A stretch of DNA of 64,000 bases from Burkholderiales bacterium (GCA_028693355.1 JAQUVM010000002.1:7418-71417); one strand, 5' to 3'. Positions 15,498 through 27,333 are shown, numbered from the stretch's first letter. Notes: generated by a model not told the origin, from the sequence alone. A program made the numbers and translations.

Positions 15498-16412
15498 CTA
15501 CAGGCGCTCACCTAACATATCAAGCATTGCTAATTCAGGTTCTGGATTTAGCGTAAATACTTGTATAGAGCTGGATTTTTTATGTAGTTTTGTCGTATTA
15601 CTTTTGTTTGGTTTATTACTAATGCTTATACCAATCCACTCGAGATGTTTACAGATCTGCTCACGTAGATTAGCATTATTATATGTTTCATTACCACTAA
15701 ATATTAAAATATCTAGTCCGCCAATTTCAATAGCCGCGTTACAAACTTTATTAGCAATTACTTTACTAGATATTAATTGTTCTGATACATATGGAATTAA
15801 CTCAAAAGAGTAATTAATCAGGTTTTTTATGCCAGTTATAAAATGTGCAGATTTGTCCGTATGGATTATTATCACTTTTGCTTTAGTAGTTTTTTTGGTG
15901 GTAATGTCACTGAGTTTATGAGTTATACTTTTAAAGTTTAAGCATTTGCTACTAATTAGTGAATTATTTTTATCATTGAAACTATCATCAAAACAAGCAT
16001 AATGTTTAGTATTACTAAAAAATGTAACTAATTTATGAGATAAAGATAACTCGTTATTTTGAGTTAATGAATTATATATTTGACCAAGTTTATTAATAGA
16101 GTCATCATTTATTCGGCTAATTTCGCCAAATTCACGATATCCATTGCTAATTTTATGTAATATTATATCAGGAGTATTAATTAGATCTGCTATATGCGTA
16201 ACAATGATTTCATAATTCATGGTTTCTTGAAAATCTTGTTGTAATACTTTAGAAATGATGTTTTTTTTACCAATAATGCGTTTTGTTGCAATGAGGTTGT
16301 TTCTATCTTCATAAATATTATGAGTCTCTGTCAAAATAAACTTCTTACCATATACTTTATAAAGATTATAAGCTATATAATCATCATGATGGTAAATGCT
16401 TAAAACTATCAA
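15498..16412 (-). CDS. Degenerate acetate kinase-like (ASKHA fold) protein
   Basis: LHKISNG, YACFDDSF, GGLDILIFSG, LREQICKHLEWIGI and VFTLNPEPELAM resemble AckA segments; catalytic motifs eroded; 304 aa versus about 400; TTG start with AAGGA RBS. Confidence 0.7.
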   Translation of the reverse strand: MIVLSIYHHDDYIAYNLYKVYGKKFILTETHNIYEDRNNLIATKRIIGKKNIISKVLQQDFQETMNYEIIVTHIADLINTPDIILHKISNGYREFGEISRINDDSINKLGQIYNSLTQNNELSLSHKLVTFFSNTKHYACFDDSFNDKNNSLISSKCLNFKSITHKLSDITTKKTTKAKVIIIHTDKSAHFITGIKNLINYSFELIPYVSEQLISSKVIANKVCNAAIEIGGLDILIFSGNETYNNANLREQICKHLEWIGISISNKPNKSNTTKLHKKSSSIQVFTLNPEPELAMLDMLGERL

Positions 16413-19232: not shown

Positions 19233-20156
19233 TTATAAGCGAAGAATTTCTGCGGATTCAATGATCGGCTTATCTAATTCTGGGTGCCATATTACGTAAC
19301 GAATTTCTTCGCTAGAATTTAGACCAACTACTTTATAGTTGCCATCTTTATCTATCGCGTGTATTGTAACTTCATCTAAATACCCAGTTTTTAAATCTGC
19401 TAAGTCTTGTGCCGCCTCATATACAGCATCAACTACACTTAAGCCCATTTTTAGATAAAGTACTACACTACGAGCAGTACCCGCTCGAATACTCATTTCA
19501 CCTGTATGTGTACATGCACATGCGCCATAGCGACTATCTGCGTAACTACCAGCACCGATGATTGGGCTATCACCTAGACGGCCTGGGTATTTCCATCCCC
19601 AACCAGAGGTGCTAGTTGCTGATGAAATACGCTTTTCATGATCTATACTCATATAGATAGTAGTATCAAACATTTTTTCAGGATCAATGGCTTCGCTTTT
19701 TATATCTAGAAGTCTAACATTAGGGAAATCTTCTTTTTGTTTTGAAGTTAGTGCATTATCTAAATGTTTATGCCAAGCATTTATAGATATTTCAGTTTCA
19801 TTTTTATTTGTGATTGCACCAATTTCATGGGCAAATCTTTCTGCTCCAACACCCACTAGCATTTCATGGTTGATGTCAGTCATAATTCGATAGGCTACTT
19901 CAACTGGATGTAAATAACCGCGGAGTGCACCAACAGAACCTGTGCGGCGTGTATTGCCATCCATAACTGACGCATCTAGTTGTAATTCACCTAAAATATT
20001 AGGCCATGAGCTCATACCTACTGTATGTATATCTGGATTTGCTTCAACAATTTTTATACCTTCAATAATAGAGCGTAGCCCATTTTCTTTTTTTGCTAAT
20101 AGTTGTGCAGATAGCTCTGTACCAGAGCGCCCCTCATAGTTTGCCAATAACAACAT
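19233..20156 (-). CDS. N4-(beta-N-acetylglucosaminyl)-L-asparaginase / type 2 asparaginase (Ntn hydrolase); start probably ATG 20156
   Basis: WPNILGELQLDASVMDG; D-T autoproteolysis site (FDTTI); ATSTSGWGWKYPGRLGDSPIIGAG; ACTHTGE. Confidence 0.88.
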   Translation of the reverse strand: MLLLANYEGRSGTELSAQLLAKKENGLRSIIEGIKIVEANPDIHTVGMSSWPNILGELQLDASVMDGNTRRTGSVGALRGYLHPVEVAYRIMTDINHEMLVGVGAERFAHEIGAITNKNETEISINAWHKHLDNALTSKQKEDFPNVRLLDIKSEAIDPEKMFDTTIYMSIDHEKRISSATSTSGWGWKYPGRLGDSPIIGAGSYADSRYGACACTHTGEMSIRAGTARSVVLYLKMGLSVVDAVYEAAQDLADLKTGYLDEVTIHAIDKDGNYKVVGLNSSEEIRYVIWHPELDKPIIESAEILRL

Positions 20157-20278
20157 ACTCTTTGTCTTTCTATCATGAACGTTGTCATACTTCAAAAAAT
20201 ATTCCTCATGTACTTAAGTGTACACATTGTCATATTTTTTATCAGTATTCCTAGTTCACAATAGAAATACTGCGAGTA
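20156..20278. repeat. Multi-stem palindromic element, copy B (123 bp)
   Basis: Stems tactc/gagta, tttctat/atagaaa, tgaac/gttca, atact/agtat, aaaaaatat/atatttttt, tgtac/gtaca. Confidence 0.85.
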
Positions 20279-20294
20279 CTTATTCTGTTTGTCT

Positions 20295-20422
20295 ATATAC
20301 TCTTCACCTTTGAGCTTTGTACTGTGTCATACTTCAAAAAATATTCCTCATGTACCAAGTGTACATGTCGTCATATTTTTTATCAGTACTCCTTGCTCAA
20401 AGCCCAAATATTTTGAGTATAT
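20295..20422. repeat. Multi-stem palindromic element, copy C (128 bp), tandem with B at about 142 bp period
   Basis: Stems atatactc/gagtatat, tttgagc/gctcaaa, tact/agta, aaaaaatat/atatttttt, atgtac/gtacat; core 20325-20393 nearly identical to 20183-20252. Confidence 0.9.
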
Positions 20423-20593
20423 TTTAATTTTAATATAATATTTTGATATTATTATAGCTAACTTCAGATTAAAGTGTACAATGAAATGAGCGACGACACC
20501 TATAAATAATAGGTTAGGAGCGAATAAGGCAGTACAGTTTAAAAATGAGTTAGTTATATCAATGTCTTTAAGCATAGTAAATGCAGTTGATGC

Positions 20594-22054
20594 TTATCCT
20601 TTACGGTCAATATTTTTTCTGATAATAAATAAAATTCCAGTAATGATAATACCAATAATTGAAACTTTTATAAACCCATTTTGATAAATTGATAGTTGTT
20701 GTTCAGTTGCTAAATGTTCAGTATTTTCAAAGCCAATTAGTTGTGCTAATAATCCTGCGGTCAGTCCAGCAAATGCATTTATCATCCACCATAACCCCAT
20801 CATTACTCCAGACATACTTTGTGGTGCATATTTTGTTACTAATGCTAAACCATTTGGGGAAATACATAGTTCTCCAAATCCTAAGAGTGTATAGCAAGCA
20901 AGTATCCAAAGTAAATTCATTTTACCCATATGTGATGCTTCGATAATTCCCAAAATGATAAAGACAAATGCAAGTGTTGCCATAGTTAAACCAATAGCAA
21001 ATTTACCAGCATAACCCGGCTCATGTTGGATTTTTTTGGTAAATCCCCAAAACCATGCAATAACTGGAGCTAATGTTATTAAAATTAATGAATAAAAGCT
21101 TGATATGCTAGAAGCTGGGATTTTCATTCCAAAATAATTGAGATCAACAACACGGTCAATGAAAATTGGTAAACTTGCTATTGTTTGATTTGATAATGTC
21201 CAGTAGCTAACTGAAAAAATTGATAAAACTAATATAATCCAGACTTTACTCCGCTCTTCAGTTGATAGTTTGCGCCATAATAAAACTATGTACCCACCCA
21301 AAATGATTAAGCAAATACCAGACACAATCGTAGATTGAATTGGATTAGCAAGTAAACTTGCAAAAACCACAGCTAGGATAAGTAAGCCTATATATACTAT
21401 ATAATCAAGTTTTATACCAGAAAATTTACTGTTGCGTAGTATAGTGTTTTCTATTTTGCAATTACTTGGGAAGTTTTTCATACCACGTTTAAATATAACT
21501 AGCCCCAATGTCATTCCAATAGCAGCTAAACCAAACCCTGCATGCCATGATATTTTTTCTGCGACAAACCCAACAGATAGAGGTGCAATGACGGCTCCAA
21601 TATTAATCCCCATATAATAGATGTTGAAGCCTTGTACGCGTTTATCTTCTTCGCTGTCAGTATATAATTTACCTACCATAATTGATACATTTGGTTTTAG
21701 TAATCCTGTACCTGTTGCGATAAATCCTAATCCAAGATAAAAAATCTTAAAGTCTATTACTGATAATGCTAAGCTTAGATGTCCAAGTAAAATAAAAATA
21801 CCACCCATAAAAGCAACTTTTGCATATCCATATATTCTATCAGCTAAAAATCCTGCTATGGTTGTTGCAAGATAAACGTATGTAACATAGCTACCAAATA
21901 TAATAAGTGCTAAATTTTCAGGTATATGAGCAGACTTAGTTAAAAATAATACTAAAACTGCATTTAAGCCATAGAAACTAAAACGTTCCCACATTTCAGT
22001 GAAGAATAATCTTTTTAGACTGCTTGGATGATTTCTCCACATTGTAAGTGACAT
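20594..22054 (-). CDS. POT/PTR family proton-dependent oligopeptide transporter
   Basis: LFFTEMWERFSFYG (ExxERF); GTGLLKPN; FNIYYMGINIG; FGELCISP. Confidence 0.95.
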   Translation of the reverse strand: MSLTMWRNHPSSLKRLFFTEMWERFSFYGLNAVLVLFLTKSAHIPENLALIIFGSYVTYVYLATTIAGFLADRIYGYAKVAFMGGIFILLGHLSLALSVIDFKIFYLGLGFIATGTGLLKPNVSIMVGKLYTDSEEDKRVQGFNIYYMGINIGAVIAPLSVGFVAEKISWHAGFGLAAIGMTLGLVIFKRGMKNFPSNCKIENTILRNSKFSGIKLDYIVYIGLLILAVVFASLLANPIQSTIVSGICLIILGGYIVLLWRKLSTEERSKVWIILVLSIFSVSYWTLSNQTIASLPIFIDRVVDLNYFGMKIPASSISSFYSLILITLAPVIAWFWGFTKKIQHEPGYAGKFAIGLTMATLAFVFIILGIIEASHMGKMNLLWILACYTLLGFGELCISPNGLALVTKYAPQSMSGVMMGLWWMINAFAGLTAGLLAQLIGFENTEHLATEQQLSIYQNGFIKVSIIGIIITGILFIIRKNIDRKG

Positions 22055-22084
22055 AATACAACCCTTAGATAATTAGAAAAGCAA

Positions 22085-22131
22085 ATTTTATCATTGTCGT
22101 AATTATTACAAACATATTTTCATGATAAAAT
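22085..22131. promoter_or_regulatory. Symmetric divergent extended -10 promoters / operator
   Basis: Perfect 10-bp inverted repeat attttatcat...atgataaaat, reading TGATAAAAT on each strand; inner gtaat-t-attac palindrome. Confidence 0.55.
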
Positions 22132-22165
22132 CACAAACTAATTAAAAATTCTAAAAAGAACCAAC

Positions 22166-23329
22166 ATGTACACAAAAATTTCTGCTAAAGATAAAGAAGT
22201 TTGTTTGATAGATAAAGATTATCCTAATCAAGCAGTAAATACACCAATTTATCAAAATTCTATTTTTCATTTTAATACAGTTGATGATTATCTTTTATAC
22301 AAAAATCGCGAAATAAAAGCGTTTTGTTATACACGTGGTAATAATCCTACAACTGAGGTATTAGAAGATAAATTGGCTAAGTTAGATGGTGGCGAATCGT
22401 GTCGTGTTTTTTCATCGGGTATGGGAGCAATCACCGCAACTTTATTTGCTTTACTAACTTCTGGTGATCATGTTTTAGTTATTAATGATATTTATGGACC
22501 TACTCGTGAGTATTTAAGTGTATTATCTAAATTTGGAATTGGTTTTGACGTTATTTCAGCAACTGATACGAAAAATTTAGAATTCTTTATCAAAGAAAAT
22601 ACACGAGTTATTTATACTGAATCACCTGGTACAATGACATTTGATGTTGTTGATTTAAGACTCATTGCTAGTATTGCAAAAACTCGTGGAGTATATACAG
22701 TTATAGATAATACTTGTATGACACCTTTATTGCAAAAACCATTGTTATTAGGGTTTGACATAGCTGTTTATTCGCTTTCAAAATACACTGGCGGCCACAG
22801 TGATGTATTAGCTGGTGCAGTTGTAGGATCTCGCGAAATTTTGGCTAAAATTGATAAGGAAGGATATAAATTAGGCGGCTCTGTAATTAGTCCTAATGAT
22901 GCATTTCTTTTACTTAGGGGGCTTAGGACACTTCCGAGTCGTTTAGAAACATTGACTTTGATAACTAGTGAAGTAGTTACTTATTTACAAAAAAATGAAA
23001 AAGTGAAAAATATTTTACATCCATTAGCTTATAATGATACAGATCTTGAACTGTATCAAGCACAAACAACAGGGATTACTTCTTTATTATCGTTACAGTT
23101 GGTAACTACAGATACTAAGAAAATCAAGATGTTTATTGATAGCCTAAAAACATTCAGTATTGCGGTTAGTTGGGGTGGTTATGAAAATTTAGTTATGGTA
23201 CAAGATGTTTTAGAATTTACTAAGGCTCATAGCGACAAAATAATAATTCGTTTAGCACTTGGTTTATTTGATGCTAGTACGATTATTGCAGATTTAGAAC
23301 AAGCATTTAATCAAATAGAGGGTAAATAA
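22166..23329 (+). CDS. Cys/Met metabolism PLP-dependent enzyme (cystathionine beta-lyase/gamma-synthase family)
   Basis: YTRGNNPT; FSSGMGAI; TESPG; IDNT; SLSKYTGGHSD (PLP Lys); SWGGYENL. Confidence 0.93.
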   Translation: MYTKISAKDKEVCLIDKDYPNQAVNTPIYQNSIFHFNTVDDYLLYKNREIKAFCYTRGNNPTTEVLEDKLAKLDGGESCRVFSSGMGAITATLFALLTSGDHVLVINDIYGPTREYLSVLSKFGIGFDVISATDTKNLEFFIKENTRVIYTESPGTMTFDVVDLRLIASIAKTRGVYTVIDNTCMTPLLQKPLLLGFDIAVYSLSKYTGGHSDVLAGAVVGSREILAKIDKEGYKLGGSVISPNDAFLLLRGLRTLPSRLETLTLITSEVVTYLQKNEKVKNILHPLAYNDTDLELYQAQTTGITSLLSLQLVTTDTKKIKMFIDSLKTFSIAVSWGGYENLVMVQDVLEFTKAHSDKIIIRLALGLFDASTIIADLEQAFNQIEGK

Positions 23330-24918
23330 TGCGTAAATTTATTTCAATGGATTTTTTTCAAAATTTAGGTAAAGCATTTATGCTACCAGTTGCATTACTA
23401 TCTGCTCTTGGGTTGATGCTTGGTATTGGATCTGCTTTAATGACCCCACAATTAGTTGAGGTAATACCGTTTTTGGGTAATGGTGTTATTGTATTTATAG
23501 CTAAATTTTTAGCCATGACTGGAGCATTTGGTTTTCAAAATTTACCTGCATTATTTGCAGTAGCGATCCCAATTGCATTAGCTAAGTATGAAAAAGGCGT
23601 GGCAGGGTTTGCAGGGTTAGTTGGTTTTTATATGATGCATAACTCAGCTAATTTTATGTTAATTCAACAAAATTTGCTAGCTGATAAGAGTAGTTTAATA
23701 AATAATGGGCAAACTTTTATATTAGGTGTTCAGACTGTTGATATGGGAGTATTAGGTGGAATTATAGCAGGTTTAATTGTTTATAATTTACATCGTAAAT
23801 ATTATAAAGTTCAATTACCAGATGCGCTATCTTTTTTTTCTGGTGCTAGATTTGTACCAATAATTACTGCTATCACTATGAGTTTGTTCGGTTTGGCATT
23901 ACCATTTATTTGGCCACCAATAGCTCATTTAATTAATAGTGCTGGGCGTTCTTTAGTATCAACTGGTATTTTTGCTCCATTCTTTTTTGGTATGGGCGAA
24001 AGATTATTATTGCCATTTGGTTTACACCATATATTAGTTGCATTAATTAGGTTTACTCCAGCTGGTGGTGAAATGTTAGTGAATGGTCATATGGTTTATG
24101 GAGCATTAAACATATTTTATGCCCAATTGGCAGATCATACGACAGGGCAATTTAATCCAATGGCGACACAATTTTTATCTCAAGGCAAAATGCCAACCTT
24201 TTTATTTGGTTTACCAGGTGCTGCATTAGCTATCTATCATACGGCCAAACCTGAAAATAGATCACAAATAAAAGGAGTTTTGATTAGTGGTGTAGTTGCT
24301 TGTGTAGTTGCAGGAATTACTGAGCCATTAGAGTTTTTATTTTTATTTACGGCACCTTATTTGTATGTGATTCATGCTGTTTATACAGGATTAGGCTTTA
24401 TGATGGCATCATTGCTTCATATTACTATTGGTAATACTGATGGCAATTTGATTGATTTAGTTGTGTTTGGCGTTTTACAGGGAACAAAAACTAAATGGTA
24501 TTTTGTTTTACCATTGGGTATTGTATGGTTTTTATTGTATTATTTTACGTTTAAATTAGTCATTTTAAAATTTAACTTGAAAACCTTAGGGCGCGAAGAT
24601 GAGGCCGTGCCAGATGCTGTTATAGGTGCAAGTGATAGTGCATTCTCAGATAAAAAAACTAATGATAGTGTAGTGCTAGATAAAAATAGCCAAGCAAATA
24701 TGATAATAGAGGCTCTTGGTGGACGCGATAATATAATATCAATAGATAATTGTTTAACTAGATTAAGAATCGTATTAAATGATATCGATTTAATTGATGA
24801 AGTTAAAATAAAGGCTACTAAATCACTTGGTATAGTAAAATTAAATAAACAAAATCTACAAGTTGTTTATGGAGTACAGGTTCATTTGATTAAAGCTGAA
24901 TTAGATAAGATATTATAA
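23329..24918 (+). CDS. PTS EIICB component, glucose/maltose (MalX-like) family
   Basis: LGKAFMLPVALL; GERLLLPFGLHH; QGKMPTFLFGLPGAALA; GITEPLEF; EIIB DNCLTRLR with active Cys. Confidence 0.93.
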   Translation: MRKFISMDFFQNLGKAFMLPVALLSALGLMLGIGSALMTPQLVEVIPFLGNGVIVFIAKFLAMTGAFGFQNLPALFAVAIPIALAKYEKGVAGFAGLVGFYMMHNSANFMLIQQNLLADKSSLINNGQTFILGVQTVDMGVLGGIIAGLIVYNLHRKYYKVQLPDALSFFSGARFVPIITAITMSLFGLALPFIWPPIAHLINSAGRSLVSTGIFAPFFFGMGERLLLPFGLHHILVALIRFTPAGGEMLVNGHMVYGALNIFYAQLADHTTGQFNPMATQFLSQGKMPTFLFGLPGAALAIYHTAKPENRSQIKGVLISGVVACVVAGITEPLEFLFLFTAPYLYVIHAVYTGLGFMMASLLHITIGNTDGNLIDLVVFGVLQGTKTKWYFVLPLGIVWFLLYYFTFKLVILKFNLKTLGREDEAVPDAVIGASDSAFSDKKTNDSVVLDKNSQANMIIEALGGRDNIISIDNCLTRLRIVLNDIDLIDEVKIKATKSLGIVKLNKQNLQVVYGVQVHLIKAELDKIL

Positions 24919-25974: not shown

Positions 25975-27333
25975 ATGGATAACATAATGATGAGATTTGT
26001 TTCTAATTTACATAGTAGTATGATAGTTTCACTAGTTCTATTTGCACCAATTTTTTATCTTGGAATAGGCGGTAAATATCCTTGGGTATTATTAGGTAAA
26101 TACGGCATTGGCTTAGGTATGATAAGCTTTTTTATCTTAACGTTATGCTTTTTTCTGATGTCTTTTATTCGTTATGGCAATGTTATTAATGAAACACTCT
26201 TTTACAAGATATTCAATTTCAATTTAATATTAAGTATTTTGGTAGCTATTGCTTATGATTTGATTCAATACAAGCATTTTTTACGTTTTGCTTATCAACA
26301 ACCAACGATGTTATATGTTTTAAGTATACTTGCCATCATTGTAATCTTTTTAAGTATTAAATTAGAAAAGACACGATGTAATGCTCTTTGGATATTTGTG
26401 ATTTGTGCGTCATATAGTAGTTTACATTATCTGGGAAGCATTTATTATTTTCCTTTGACCGAAGCTCGCTCTGATATGCTACCTGCAATATCATTATCTA
26501 TACAACATTTTTATGATGGGTTTAGCCCATATCATAAAAGTATAGAATCTATAGGAGTACCACCATACTTACCTTTTACTATGATCTCGTTTATACCTGC
26601 TTATTTATGGAATATTGATTTTAGGTTTATTACATTAGTTTATTGGATTATAAGTATGGTATTAATTGCTTATAAGATTAATAAATTTACTATGGAACAG
26701 GTTTGTGCAATATGTTTATTCGTTATTAATCCGTACTTTTTAATGCGTCATGAAATGTATTATCAAATATTTCTATTAGAAATGATTGTAATTTGTTTAT
26801 ATTTACAATACTTTAACTACGCTGGCAAAGTTATTATTTTTGGGGTTTTTATTTCTACTTTACAGTTTGCTTGGATACTAATGCCATTTATAATATTAGC
26901 TGATAGTAAATCTAAATCTGAGGCTATTACAAAATTTATTTTATCTACTGCTATTGGTTTTTTAATCTCTCTTATATATATTGGAATAAATCAAACCAAT
27001 TTAGCTGATTTTATAAAAGCAATGTTTTTACATAAAGAATATAATTCACCTTATTCTTCGGATATTACTTTTGGATTATCAACAGTTTTTTATTTTGCCA
27101 AATCTCAAGTATTACTATATATCATGCAGATACTATCTTGTCTCAGTATAATATTATATTCAATATATTTGTACATAGTAAAAGGGAATAGGTCTCACAA
27201 TATGTATTTATCAATGAGTGCAATATGTTATATGATATTTATGACAACTAATTACTTCATCGAAACTTATTTATTAGCGCCACTTATTCTATACTTTATT
27301 GTGTCATATAAAAATGAAAACTCAACATATTAA
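25975..27333 (+). CDS. Polytopic membrane protein, possible GT-C (GT87/DUF2029-like) glycosyltransferase
   Basis: About 11-12 hydrophobic segments; loop ARSDMLPAI...FSPY...PPYLPF resembles GT-C acceptor loops. Confidence 0.4.
   Translation: MDNIMMRFVSNLHSSMIVSLVLFAPIFYLGIGGKYPWVLLGKYGIGLGMISFFILTLCFFLMSFIRYGNVINETLFYKIFNFNLILSILVAIAYDLIQYKHFLRFAYQQPTMLYVLSILAIIVIFLSIKLEKTRCNALWIFVICASYSSLHYLGSIYYFPLTEARSDMLPAISLSIQHFYDGFSPYHKSIESIGVPPYLPFTMISFIPAYLWNIDFRFITLVYWIISMVLIAYKINKFTMEQVCAICLFVINPYFLMRHEMYYQIFLLEMIVICLYLQYFNYAGKVIIFGVFISTLQFAWILMPFIILADSKSKSEAITKFILSTAIGFLISLIYIGINQTNLADFIKAMFLHKEYNSPYSSDITFGLSTVFYFAKSQVLLYIMQILSCLSIILYSIYLYIVKGNRSHNMYLSMSAICYMIFMTTNYFIETYLLAPLILYFIVSYKNENSTY

Follow-up and report, generated by a model that had tools for sequence, protein, structure and literature searches.

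The four genes described here lie in a 64,000-nucleotide stretch of DNA, referred to below as the window, from Burkholderiales bacterium GCA_028693355.1 (JAQUVM010000002.1:7418-71417). Two of them, encoding a transporter of the POT/PTR2 family and an N-terminal nucleophile (Ntn) hydrolase, are transcribed from the minus strand, and the other two, encoding a pyridoxal 5'-phosphate (PLP)-dependent enzyme and an enzyme IICB (EIICB) of a sugar phosphotransferase system (PTS), are transcribed divergently from them (Table 1). A first-pass annotation of this DNA had named these four genes, a 1-bp overlap of the PLP and EIICB genes, and a 111-bp spacer between the two pairs, all of which is borne out by the listing of open reading frames (ORFs), by profile searches, and by the sequence itself, where the overlap reads TAATG. 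The same annotation had joined the four genes into one integrated salvage locus, a view that did not survive comparison with related genomes: the four genes are two unrelated two-gene cassettes that touch only in this genome. The host lineage is a low-GC, uncultured Neisseriaceae-like genus that is known from metagenome-assembled genomes (MAGs) only and whose close relatives have been deposited as "uncultured Neisseria sp.," "Neisseriaceae bacterium AWTP1-26," "Neisseriales bacterium," and "Burkholderiales bacterium"; the window itself is AT-rich (GC content of about 31%).

Table 1. Genes and features of the two cassettes (window coordinates)
Feature	Coordinates	Strand	Evidence
Asparaginase_2 Ntn hydrolase, 307 aa, second gene of the POT-Ntn cassette	19233..20156	-	PF01112, 180 bits
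Dispersed-repeat insert between the POT and Ntn genes, three copies	20157..20593		blastn against own genome
POT/PTR2 proton-coupled di/tripeptide-type transporter, first gene of the POT-Ntn cassette	20594..22054	-	PF00854, 205 bits; TIGR00924, 302.9 bits
Divergent spacer, 111 bp, with a 10-nt perfect inverted repeat	22055..22165		direct sequence
Cys/Met-metabolism fold-type-I PLP enzyme, divergent, 387 aa, first gene of the PLP-MalX cassette	22166..23329	+	PF01053, 321.5 bits
MalX-orthologous PTS EIICB, 529 aa, second gene of the cassette	23329..24918	+	TIGR02004, 698.5 bits

The reading that we favor is that the locus brings together two independent, horizontally mobile pairs, each consisting of an importer and a cytoplasmic enzyme, and that the PLP-MalX pair is a variant of the malXY module whose transporter and enzyme have a common substrate; we regard this combination as probable, with room for doubt. 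The independence of the pairs emerges from searches that covered 40 related genomes. Orthologs of the PLP enzyme (53 to 68% identical) and of MalX (67 to 79% identical) occur together in eight of these (G009, G010, G011, G012, G013, G017, G019, and G021), and the neighborhood check that the first-pass annotation had called for found them directly adjacent in every relative whose assembly permits checking (G009, G011, G012, G013, G017, G019, and G021). The POT (76 to 83% identical) and Ntn (80 to 85% identical) genes abut or overlap, with the POT gene directly upstream, in nine genomes of the genus (G002, G009, G010, G011, G012, G013, G015, G017, and G019), and the pair is also found in Lentisphaerota, where the Ntn hydrolase is 73 to 74% identical. 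This adjacency of the PLP and EIICB genes, together with the conservation of POT-Ntn across phyla, upholds the earlier view of each arm as an importer coupled to an enzyme, and functional coupling within each pair is supported. Co-conservation of the two arms with each other is another matter. Every relative with both gene sets carries them on separate contigs, synteny around PLP-MalX is not shared, and the presence of the pairs is discordant: G015 encodes POT-Ntn and no MalX; G002 encodes POT-Ntn with only a 5'-truncated malX remnant and no PLP ortholog; and in G021, which is 59% complete, PLP-MalX is present and POT-Ntn was not detected. Each pair is also found alone, in unrelated contexts.

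Among the relatives, the PLP-MalX pair occupies at least four flanking contexts. Here it stands between the POT gene and gshB; in one group of genomes it lies between a patatin gene and an alpha/beta-hydrolase gene; and on a more distant contig, with 50% identity for the PLP enzyme and 65% for MalX, it follows a SerA-like gene. No other ORF of the window is common to the surroundings of the pair (within ±9 kb) in relatives. Because the pair is kept across such varied flanks, PLP-MalX behaves as a cassette. A link between the cassette and gshB was considered and rejected, as gshB adjoins the pair in no relative. One MAG of the genus carries a malX remnant (L088:5001-6029) that runs from residue 120 onward, is preceded by unrelated AT-rich DNA, and has no PLP gene; it represents either the decay of a cassette or an assembly error.

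The spacer between the two cassettes had been proposed to serve as a symmetric common promoter of both arms. It contains a perfect 10-nt inverted repeat, ATTTTATCAT-N27-ATGATAAAAT, at positions 22085-22094 and 22122-22131, which was equaled or exceeded in 27 of 2,000 shuffles, and the 111 bp occur once in their own genome. No conserved operator was found upstream of the orthologous PLP genes in relatives; in several of these the PLP gene starts 27 to 40 bp past a patatin gene. Because the sequences upstream of the PLP orthologs are unrelated, both the spacer and the repeat within it are peculiar to this genome, and the shared-promoter proposal finds no conservation to stand on.

The POT and Ntn genes abut in the relatives and are not contiguous in the window, where 437 bp of repeats (20157-20593) lie between them. 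This gap contains two copies of an element of ∼123 bp (at about 20156-20278 and 20295-20422), with about 50 more copies in the genome, and one copy of an element of ∼110 bp (at about 20450-20561), with about 14 further copies, all identified by blastn. The three dispersed repeats have been inserted into the POT-Ntn operon of this genome and split it. The first copy overlaps the region of the Ntn start codon, and the Ntn ORF as listed (19233-20195) starts at a TTG codon at 20195, inside that copy. We infer that the true start is the ATG at 20156, which gives a protein of 307 aa, the length of all its homologs.

The EIICB passes both models of the MalX family (TIGR02004, 698.5 bits against a cutoff of 632.2; NF007509/PRK10110, 694.3 against 665). 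It is 53% identical over its full length to MalX of E. coli, compared to 33% to the NagE-like EIICB of its own genome, and has the EIIC-EIIB domain order (PF02378 at residues 14-354, followed by PF00367 at residues 459-490). In the alignment with E. coli MalX, the Cys motif of the EIIB domain, NCLTRLR (C475, T477, R478, L479, and R480), and the TEPLEF motif of the EIIC domain (T331, E332, and P333) are invariant. By profile score and sequence identity, the protein is a true MalX ortholog.

The best 80 MalX loci, with one genome per species, were scanned by tblastn. In all 75 loci that lie outside the genus, a homolog of MalY, 44 to 84% identical to the E. coli protein, is encoded directly downstream of malX. 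These 75 loci, from four phyla, are those of Enterobacterales, Vibrionaceae, Aeromonas, Thorsellia, Brachyspira (Spirochaetota), Facklamia (Bacillota), and Fusobacterium. What varies is the regulator: most gammaproteobacterial loci encode MalI, those of Facklamia encode an RpiR/SIS protein, and those of Brachyspira encode a PRD/Mga-type activator with EIIA-2, preceded by an M3 oligopeptidase. The pairing of an EIICB with a PLP enzyme is thus the invariant core of MalX loci, around which regulators are swapped.

The genus described here keeps that pairing with a different partner. In all four of its complete loci, the gene upstream of malX encodes the PLP enzyme of the Cys/Met-metabolism family (PF01053), and the gene downstream of malX in the window is gshB rather than a member of the MalY/PatB subfamily. 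The PLP partner has no sequence relation to MalY (BLASTP E value of 0.28), which, together with the MalX profile score, confirms the earlier description of a MalX-like EIICB paired with a PLP enzyme of a subfamily other than that of MalY. A MalX tree shows four deep lineages: the clade of this genus and three whose partner is in every case MalY. On sequence grounds, MalY has been displaced non-orthologously, within the malXY module, by a PLP enzyme of an unrelated subfamily. Compared with the malI-malX-malY region of E. coli, the cassette shares an orthologous EIICB tightly linked to a gene for a fold-type-I PLP enzyme transcribed in the same direction, with EIIA acting in trans; it differs in that the E. 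coli partner belongs to the MalY/PatB aminotransferase-class subfamily, in that the PLP gene is downstream of malX in E. coli and upstream here, and in that the host genome lacks the LacI-type MalI repressor, MalT, and the maltose regulon.

For derepressed E. coli MalX, the only transport known is that of glucose and maltose (Reidl and Boos 1991, cited in PMC5845896); MalY acts as a cystathionase and, in addition, as a repressor of MalT (cited in PMC5845896 and PMC10427625). No natural substrate or inducer of MalX, MalY, or MalI was identified in the literature searched. In the genome studied here, which is 98.7% complete, tblastn found neither MalI nor MalT, so that a MalT-regulatory role of the PLP partner is excluded.

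The first-pass annotation had also pointed to the lack of a glycosidase, an EIIA, and a regulator. This is correct locally, as none of the three is encoded within about 5 kb of the four-gene region, and wrong genome-wide for EIIA: contig C46 of the same genome carries a gene for an 843-aa EIIA-Glc/HPr/EI fusion followed by one for a 570-aa NagE-like EIICB (C46:9147-14393). With EI, HPr, and EIIA-Glc available from this contig, MalX can be energized in trans, as in E. coli. Next on contig C46 comes a second set (EIIA-Man/HPr/EI), with an EIIA-Man-type gene and, at the contig end, the start of a second EI gene, so two general PTS sets are present in the genome. No GH4 or GH1 phospho-glycosidase is encoded in the genome.

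The PLP enzyme scores below every NCBIfam equivalog cutoff. Its top match in that collection is the archaeal L-Ala/L-Glu racemase (NF041088, 362.5 bits against a cutoff of 629), and its closest relative of solved structure is an archaeal Ala/Glu racemase (9iz5, 248 bits); the methionine gamma-lyase (MGL) and cystathionine beta-lyase (CBL) models give 273 bits (cutoff, 549.7) and 252 bits (cutoff, 365.9), respectively. The catalytic residues Y55/R57, Y110, D181, K206, S335, W336, and R362, equivalent to Y56/R58, Y111, D185, K210, S339, W340, and R372 of E. coli MetC, are kept, so that the PLP-binding Lys, the stacking Tyr, the Asp that contacts the pyridine nitrogen, the Tyr/Arg phosphate clamp, and the alpha-carboxylate-binding Arg are all conserved. 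MetC R59, which binds the distal carboxylate, aligns with G58, and the YGC motif of MGL (Cys116) reads YGP. With equivalog scores far below the cutoffs and neither MetC R59 nor the MGL Cys residue present, the enzyme is not recognizable as a cystathionine beta-lyase, a methionine gamma-lyase, or a cystathionine gamma-lyase or synthase. Even the label "lyase," which the first-pass annotation had used, should be treated as an assumption.

Outside the genus, the PLP enzyme has its nearest relatives, at 41 to 48% identity, in Enterobacter, Salibacterium, Radiobacillus, a MAG, and a Superficieibacter-like contig. In all five, a gene for an NhaC-family transporter follows 0 to 15 bp after the PLP gene, and one further homolog (46% identical) precedes a gene for an APC permease. 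In a tree built on the 120 best matches, the PTS-linked PLP enzymes fall within a single clade of 32 members (support, 100%), to which the NhaC-linked clades are sister. This position, together with the transporter neighbors, places the PLP enzyme in a lineage that is habitually coupled to importers of amino-acid-like substrates. The pairs of a "trans-sulfuration enzyme family protein" with NhaC in Enterobacter, Citrobacter, Salibacterium, Radiobacillus, and others resemble the cassette in that they belong to the same wider PLP clade and have the enzyme gene directly before the importer gene; they differ in having a secondary carrier where the cassette has a PTS EIICB and in consistent differences of the active-site pocket. 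At six pocket positions, the PTS-linked clade has C54, N59, Y116, K231, Y234, and K235, where the NhaC-linked enzymes have I/V, L, L, D, H/F, and Q/L, which points to a different and probably more polar substrate than that of the NhaC-linked clade.

Several other members of this family were encountered. The NhaC-linked relatives were considered as candidates for the known Citrobacter methionine gamma-lyase, an assignment rejected on a score of only 257 bits. At L033:2710-8725, the 46%-identical homolog is followed by genes for the APC amino acid permease, an AmiA-like amidase, and a GH20 beta-hexosaminidase, a mixture of amino acid and amino sugar genes. A 48%-identical paralog found in G015 and G009 (L019:5873-7051 and L022:8848-10035) adjoins no transporter gene; it has PPK2/aspartokinase genes on one side and a glyoxalase-II-like gene and cyanophycin synthetases on the other, and the G009 copy contains an in-frame TGA codon. 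The genome studied here also encodes, away from the PTS genes, a PatB-family C-S lyase (TIGR04350, 389 bits; cutoff, 340) and a canonical cystathionine gamma-lyase-like enzyme.

Displacement of MalY within the malXY module is the basis on which we argue that MalX and its PLP partner have a common substrate: that two unrelated enzymes occupy the place beside the same permease suggests that the permease and the enzyme act on one compound. A glyco-amino acid would be a reasonable guess for that compound. The route could then run as follows: the EIIA-Glc/HPr/EI fusion encoded on contig C46 would supply phosphate to MalX; MalX would import and phosphorylate a glucose-like compound bearing an alpha-amino-acid moiety; and the PLP enzyme would process this moiety, most simply by alpha,beta-elimination, with sugar phosphate, pyruvate, and ammonia as the predicted products and no need for a glycosidase. 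A self-sufficient pathway of two genes would explain how the cassette can work in many genomic contexts. A parallel is offered by the dga operon, where PLP-dependent elimination, again with no glycosidase, cleaves a compound that a PTS has phosphorylated and that carries an alpha-amino-acid function; that operon differs in its Man-family (not Glc/Mal-family) PTS, its SelA-like PLP subfamily, its known substrate, and its larger size. The generalization that MalX-family EIICBs and the adjoining PLP enzymes constitute a glycosidase-free route for PTS-phosphorylated glyco-amino acids, cleaved by PLP-dependent elimination, is offered tentatively, as a possibility that we would currently not bet on; the compounds in question may be O- or S-glucosyl derivatives of serine or cysteine or a related amino sugar conjugate.

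Several points weigh against a common substrate or against the history proposed for the pair. The E. coli protein is known for glucose and maltose transport only, so that MalX might simply import glucose. Conserved adjacency is a sign of co-selection, which is not the same as a common substrate. The closest solved relative of the PLP enzyme is a racemase, and the wider clade has no characterized member. Comparison of the pockets of PTS-linked and NhaC-linked enzymes revealed no clear phosphate-binding signature; the changes in charge largely compensate each other (R230/D231 to D230/K231). Finally, the root of the MalX tree is unreliable, owing to a long outgroup branch, and displacement of MalY is therefore indistinguishable from independent recruitment of a PLP enzyme.

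According to the strongest of the competing explanations, the pairing is physiological or regulatory: MalX would import glucose or maltose, and the PLP protein would be a sulfur amino acid lyase, a desulfhydrase, or a MalY-like moonlighting regulator whose cotranscription links, for example, sugar supply to Cys/Met turnover. The transport and regulatory data on E. coli MalX and MalY cited in PMC5845896 and PMC10427625 fit this explanation, as do the full retention of the PLP- and alpha-carboxylate-binding residues of a trans-sulfuration-type enzyme and the glutathione synthase gene immediately downstream of the cassette. However, the adjacency to gshB is not conserved, the genome has no MalT or MalI for such a protein to act with, and both a cystathionine gamma-lyase-like enzyme and a PatB-family C-S lyase are already encoded elsewhere. 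In addition, the PLP partner comes from a transporter-coupled clade, and the maintenance of two unrelated PLP subfamilies beside MalX across four phyla is hard to explain without a catalytic link. We consider a purely physiological pairing unlikely, if still worth keeping in mind.

The racemase matches of the PLP enzyme raise a second alternative, namely, that it acts as a racemase or epimerase, on either the amino acid part of an imported compound or free Ala/Glu, and not as a lyase. The NhaC-linked relatives give the same top matches, E. coli MetC is annotated with an alanine racemase side activity, and the MalY protein of Lactobacillus sakei, encoded in a PTS gene cluster, is described in PMC5845896 as both a racemase and a beta-lyase. 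On the other hand, the score of 362 bits is far under the family cutoff of 629, racemization alone would free no usable sugar phosphate from a conjugate, and the cassette includes no downstream enzyme of D-amino acid metabolism, all of which makes this alternative distinctly improbable.

The second cassette is built on a POT transporter that scores well above the cutoff of its family model (TIGR00924, 302.9 bits versus 130.2) and on an Ntn hydrolase that is about equidistant from the isoaspartyl peptidase of E. coli (96 bits) and the glycosylasparaginase of Flavobacterium (90 bits). The clade to which the hydrolase belongs is 60 to 95% identical across several phyla and has the invariant motifs FDT(T), GRLGDSPIIGAG, and MLL(I/L)ANYEGR. 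The D-T scissile site (in FDT) and the residues R193 and D196 of the GRLGDSP motif are invariant in the clade, as in glycosylasparaginase, and some of its members have been named N(4)-(beta-N-acetylglucosaminyl)-L-asparaginase in the automatic annotation at NCBI. The 307-aa homologs begin at the conserved domain (MLLIANYEGR), which leaves no room for a signal peptide, and the linkage to an importer implies cytoplasmic action. The 20 N-terminal residues are left unaligned by HMMER; an ungapped extension would put N and E at the positions of W11 and F13, the sugar-contacting aromatic residues near the N terminus of the Flavobacterium enzyme, with no clear sign that these are conserved. The hydrolase also falls short of the model for EcAIII-type isoaspartyl peptidases (PRK10226, 110.9 bits; cutoff, 567) and lacks the HGGxG motif, which is present, as IIIHGGCGA, in a second paralog in the same genome. 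As this canonical paralog is part of a cyanophycin cluster, the POT-linked hydrolase can be viewed as the second, divergent paralog. The cyanophycin cluster (C142:6972-13510) is complete, with cphA1 (934 aa), a cphA2-like gene (564 aa), and genes for a cyanophycinase (TIGR02069, 244 bits) and the canonical isoaspartyl dipeptidase, and is unusual for a Neisseriaceae-like lineage.

On metagenome contigs, more distant homologs of the Ntn hydrolase follow POT genes (40 to 42% identical at the protein level), some with CutC encoded downstream, whereas others follow genes for an Opp-type permease and an M17 aminopeptidase or adjoin GH28 or GH127 genes. The three-gene order POT-Ntn-CutC is seen at L156:367-3486 and also at L157, L147, and L169, with Ntn proteins 58 to 63% identical. 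To our knowledge, the CutC family has no settled function, and no paper tying CutC to glycosylasparaginase was found in the literature searched. The linkage to POT or Opp importers and to the M17 peptidase favors a peptide-like imported substrate, presumably a beta-aspartyl or N4-substituted asparagine compound, with an isoaspartyl peptide appearing somewhat more likely than N-acetylglucosaminyl asparagine (GlcNAc-Asn). In the proposed scheme, the POT transporter would import a small peptide-like compound of this kind, such as an isoaspartyl di- or tripeptide or, less likely, GlcNAc-Asn, and the cytoplasmic hydrolase would cut its amide bond. The pair resembles the iaaA-gsiABCD genes of E. coli in linking such an enzyme to a peptide importer, and its hydrolase has the same fold, nucleophilic Thr, and aspartate-binding Arg/Asp residues as IaaA and the bacterial and lysosomal glycosylasparaginases. 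The importer is a POT transporter in place of an ABC system, and the hydrolase has low identity to both characterized subfamilies (∼25 to 30%), lacking the HGGxG motif of isoaspartyl peptidases and the signal peptide of glycosylasparaginases.

The proposal with which the first-pass annotation began, a single glyco-amino acid and glycopeptide salvage locus in which a PTS-lyase arm handles S- and O-glycosyl amino acids and a POT-asparaginase arm handles N-linked remnants under joint control from the spacer, could draw on the importer-plus-cleaving-enzyme design of both pairs with no glycosidase, on the occurrence of both within one and the same group of the genus, that with the larger genomes, on the D-T motif and database names of the Ntn homologs, and on the inverted repeat, but as a conserved unit it is largely refuted by the separate contigs, the discordant presence, the unconserved spacer, and the existence of each pair alone in other lineages, and we regard it as very improbable.

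The genes upstream of the two cassettes encode UDG, GNAT, TsaB, a HemN-like protein, and NDH-2, and those downstream encode GshB, a polytopic membrane protein, an acyltransferase, HslU, and a PPIase, all of a housekeeping nature. The polytopic membrane protein (452 aa; window positions 25975-27333), encoded directly after gshB, has no match in Pfam or NCBIfam, and a 304-aa ORF upstream of the TsaB-like gene (15498-16412) resembles acetate kinase only weakly, at its C terminus (PF00871, 25.9 bits), with no significant stretch. A search of the window against Rfam gave no matches. Scans of this AT-rich DNA for promoters (40 versus 39.7 expected) and terminators (3 versus 3.2 expected) returned what shuffled sequences would give.

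The cotranscription of malX, the gene for a sugar PTS permease, with malY, the gene for a PLP-dependent C-S lyase, has been without an explanation since 1991. The contribution of this locus lies in a genuine MalX ortholog whose MalY neighbor has been replaced non-orthologously, together with the systematic count of 75 adjacent pairs in 75 loci. These two comparative facts, the universal linkage of MalX to a PLP enzyme in the sampled loci and the exchange of MalY in a lineage that has neither MalT nor MalI, make the malXY question testable, and together they point to a common substrate with a sugar-like and an amino-acid-like part. As a minimal, regulator-free cassette of two genes, PLP-MalX is well suited to expression and screening, and POT-Ntn is a second compact cassette, conserved across phyla. 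If the glycosidase-free route proposed tentatively for MalX-family pairs is correct, the swap of MalY in a genus without MalT would mean that malX and malY were originally linked for the sake of catalysis and not for control over the maltose regulon.

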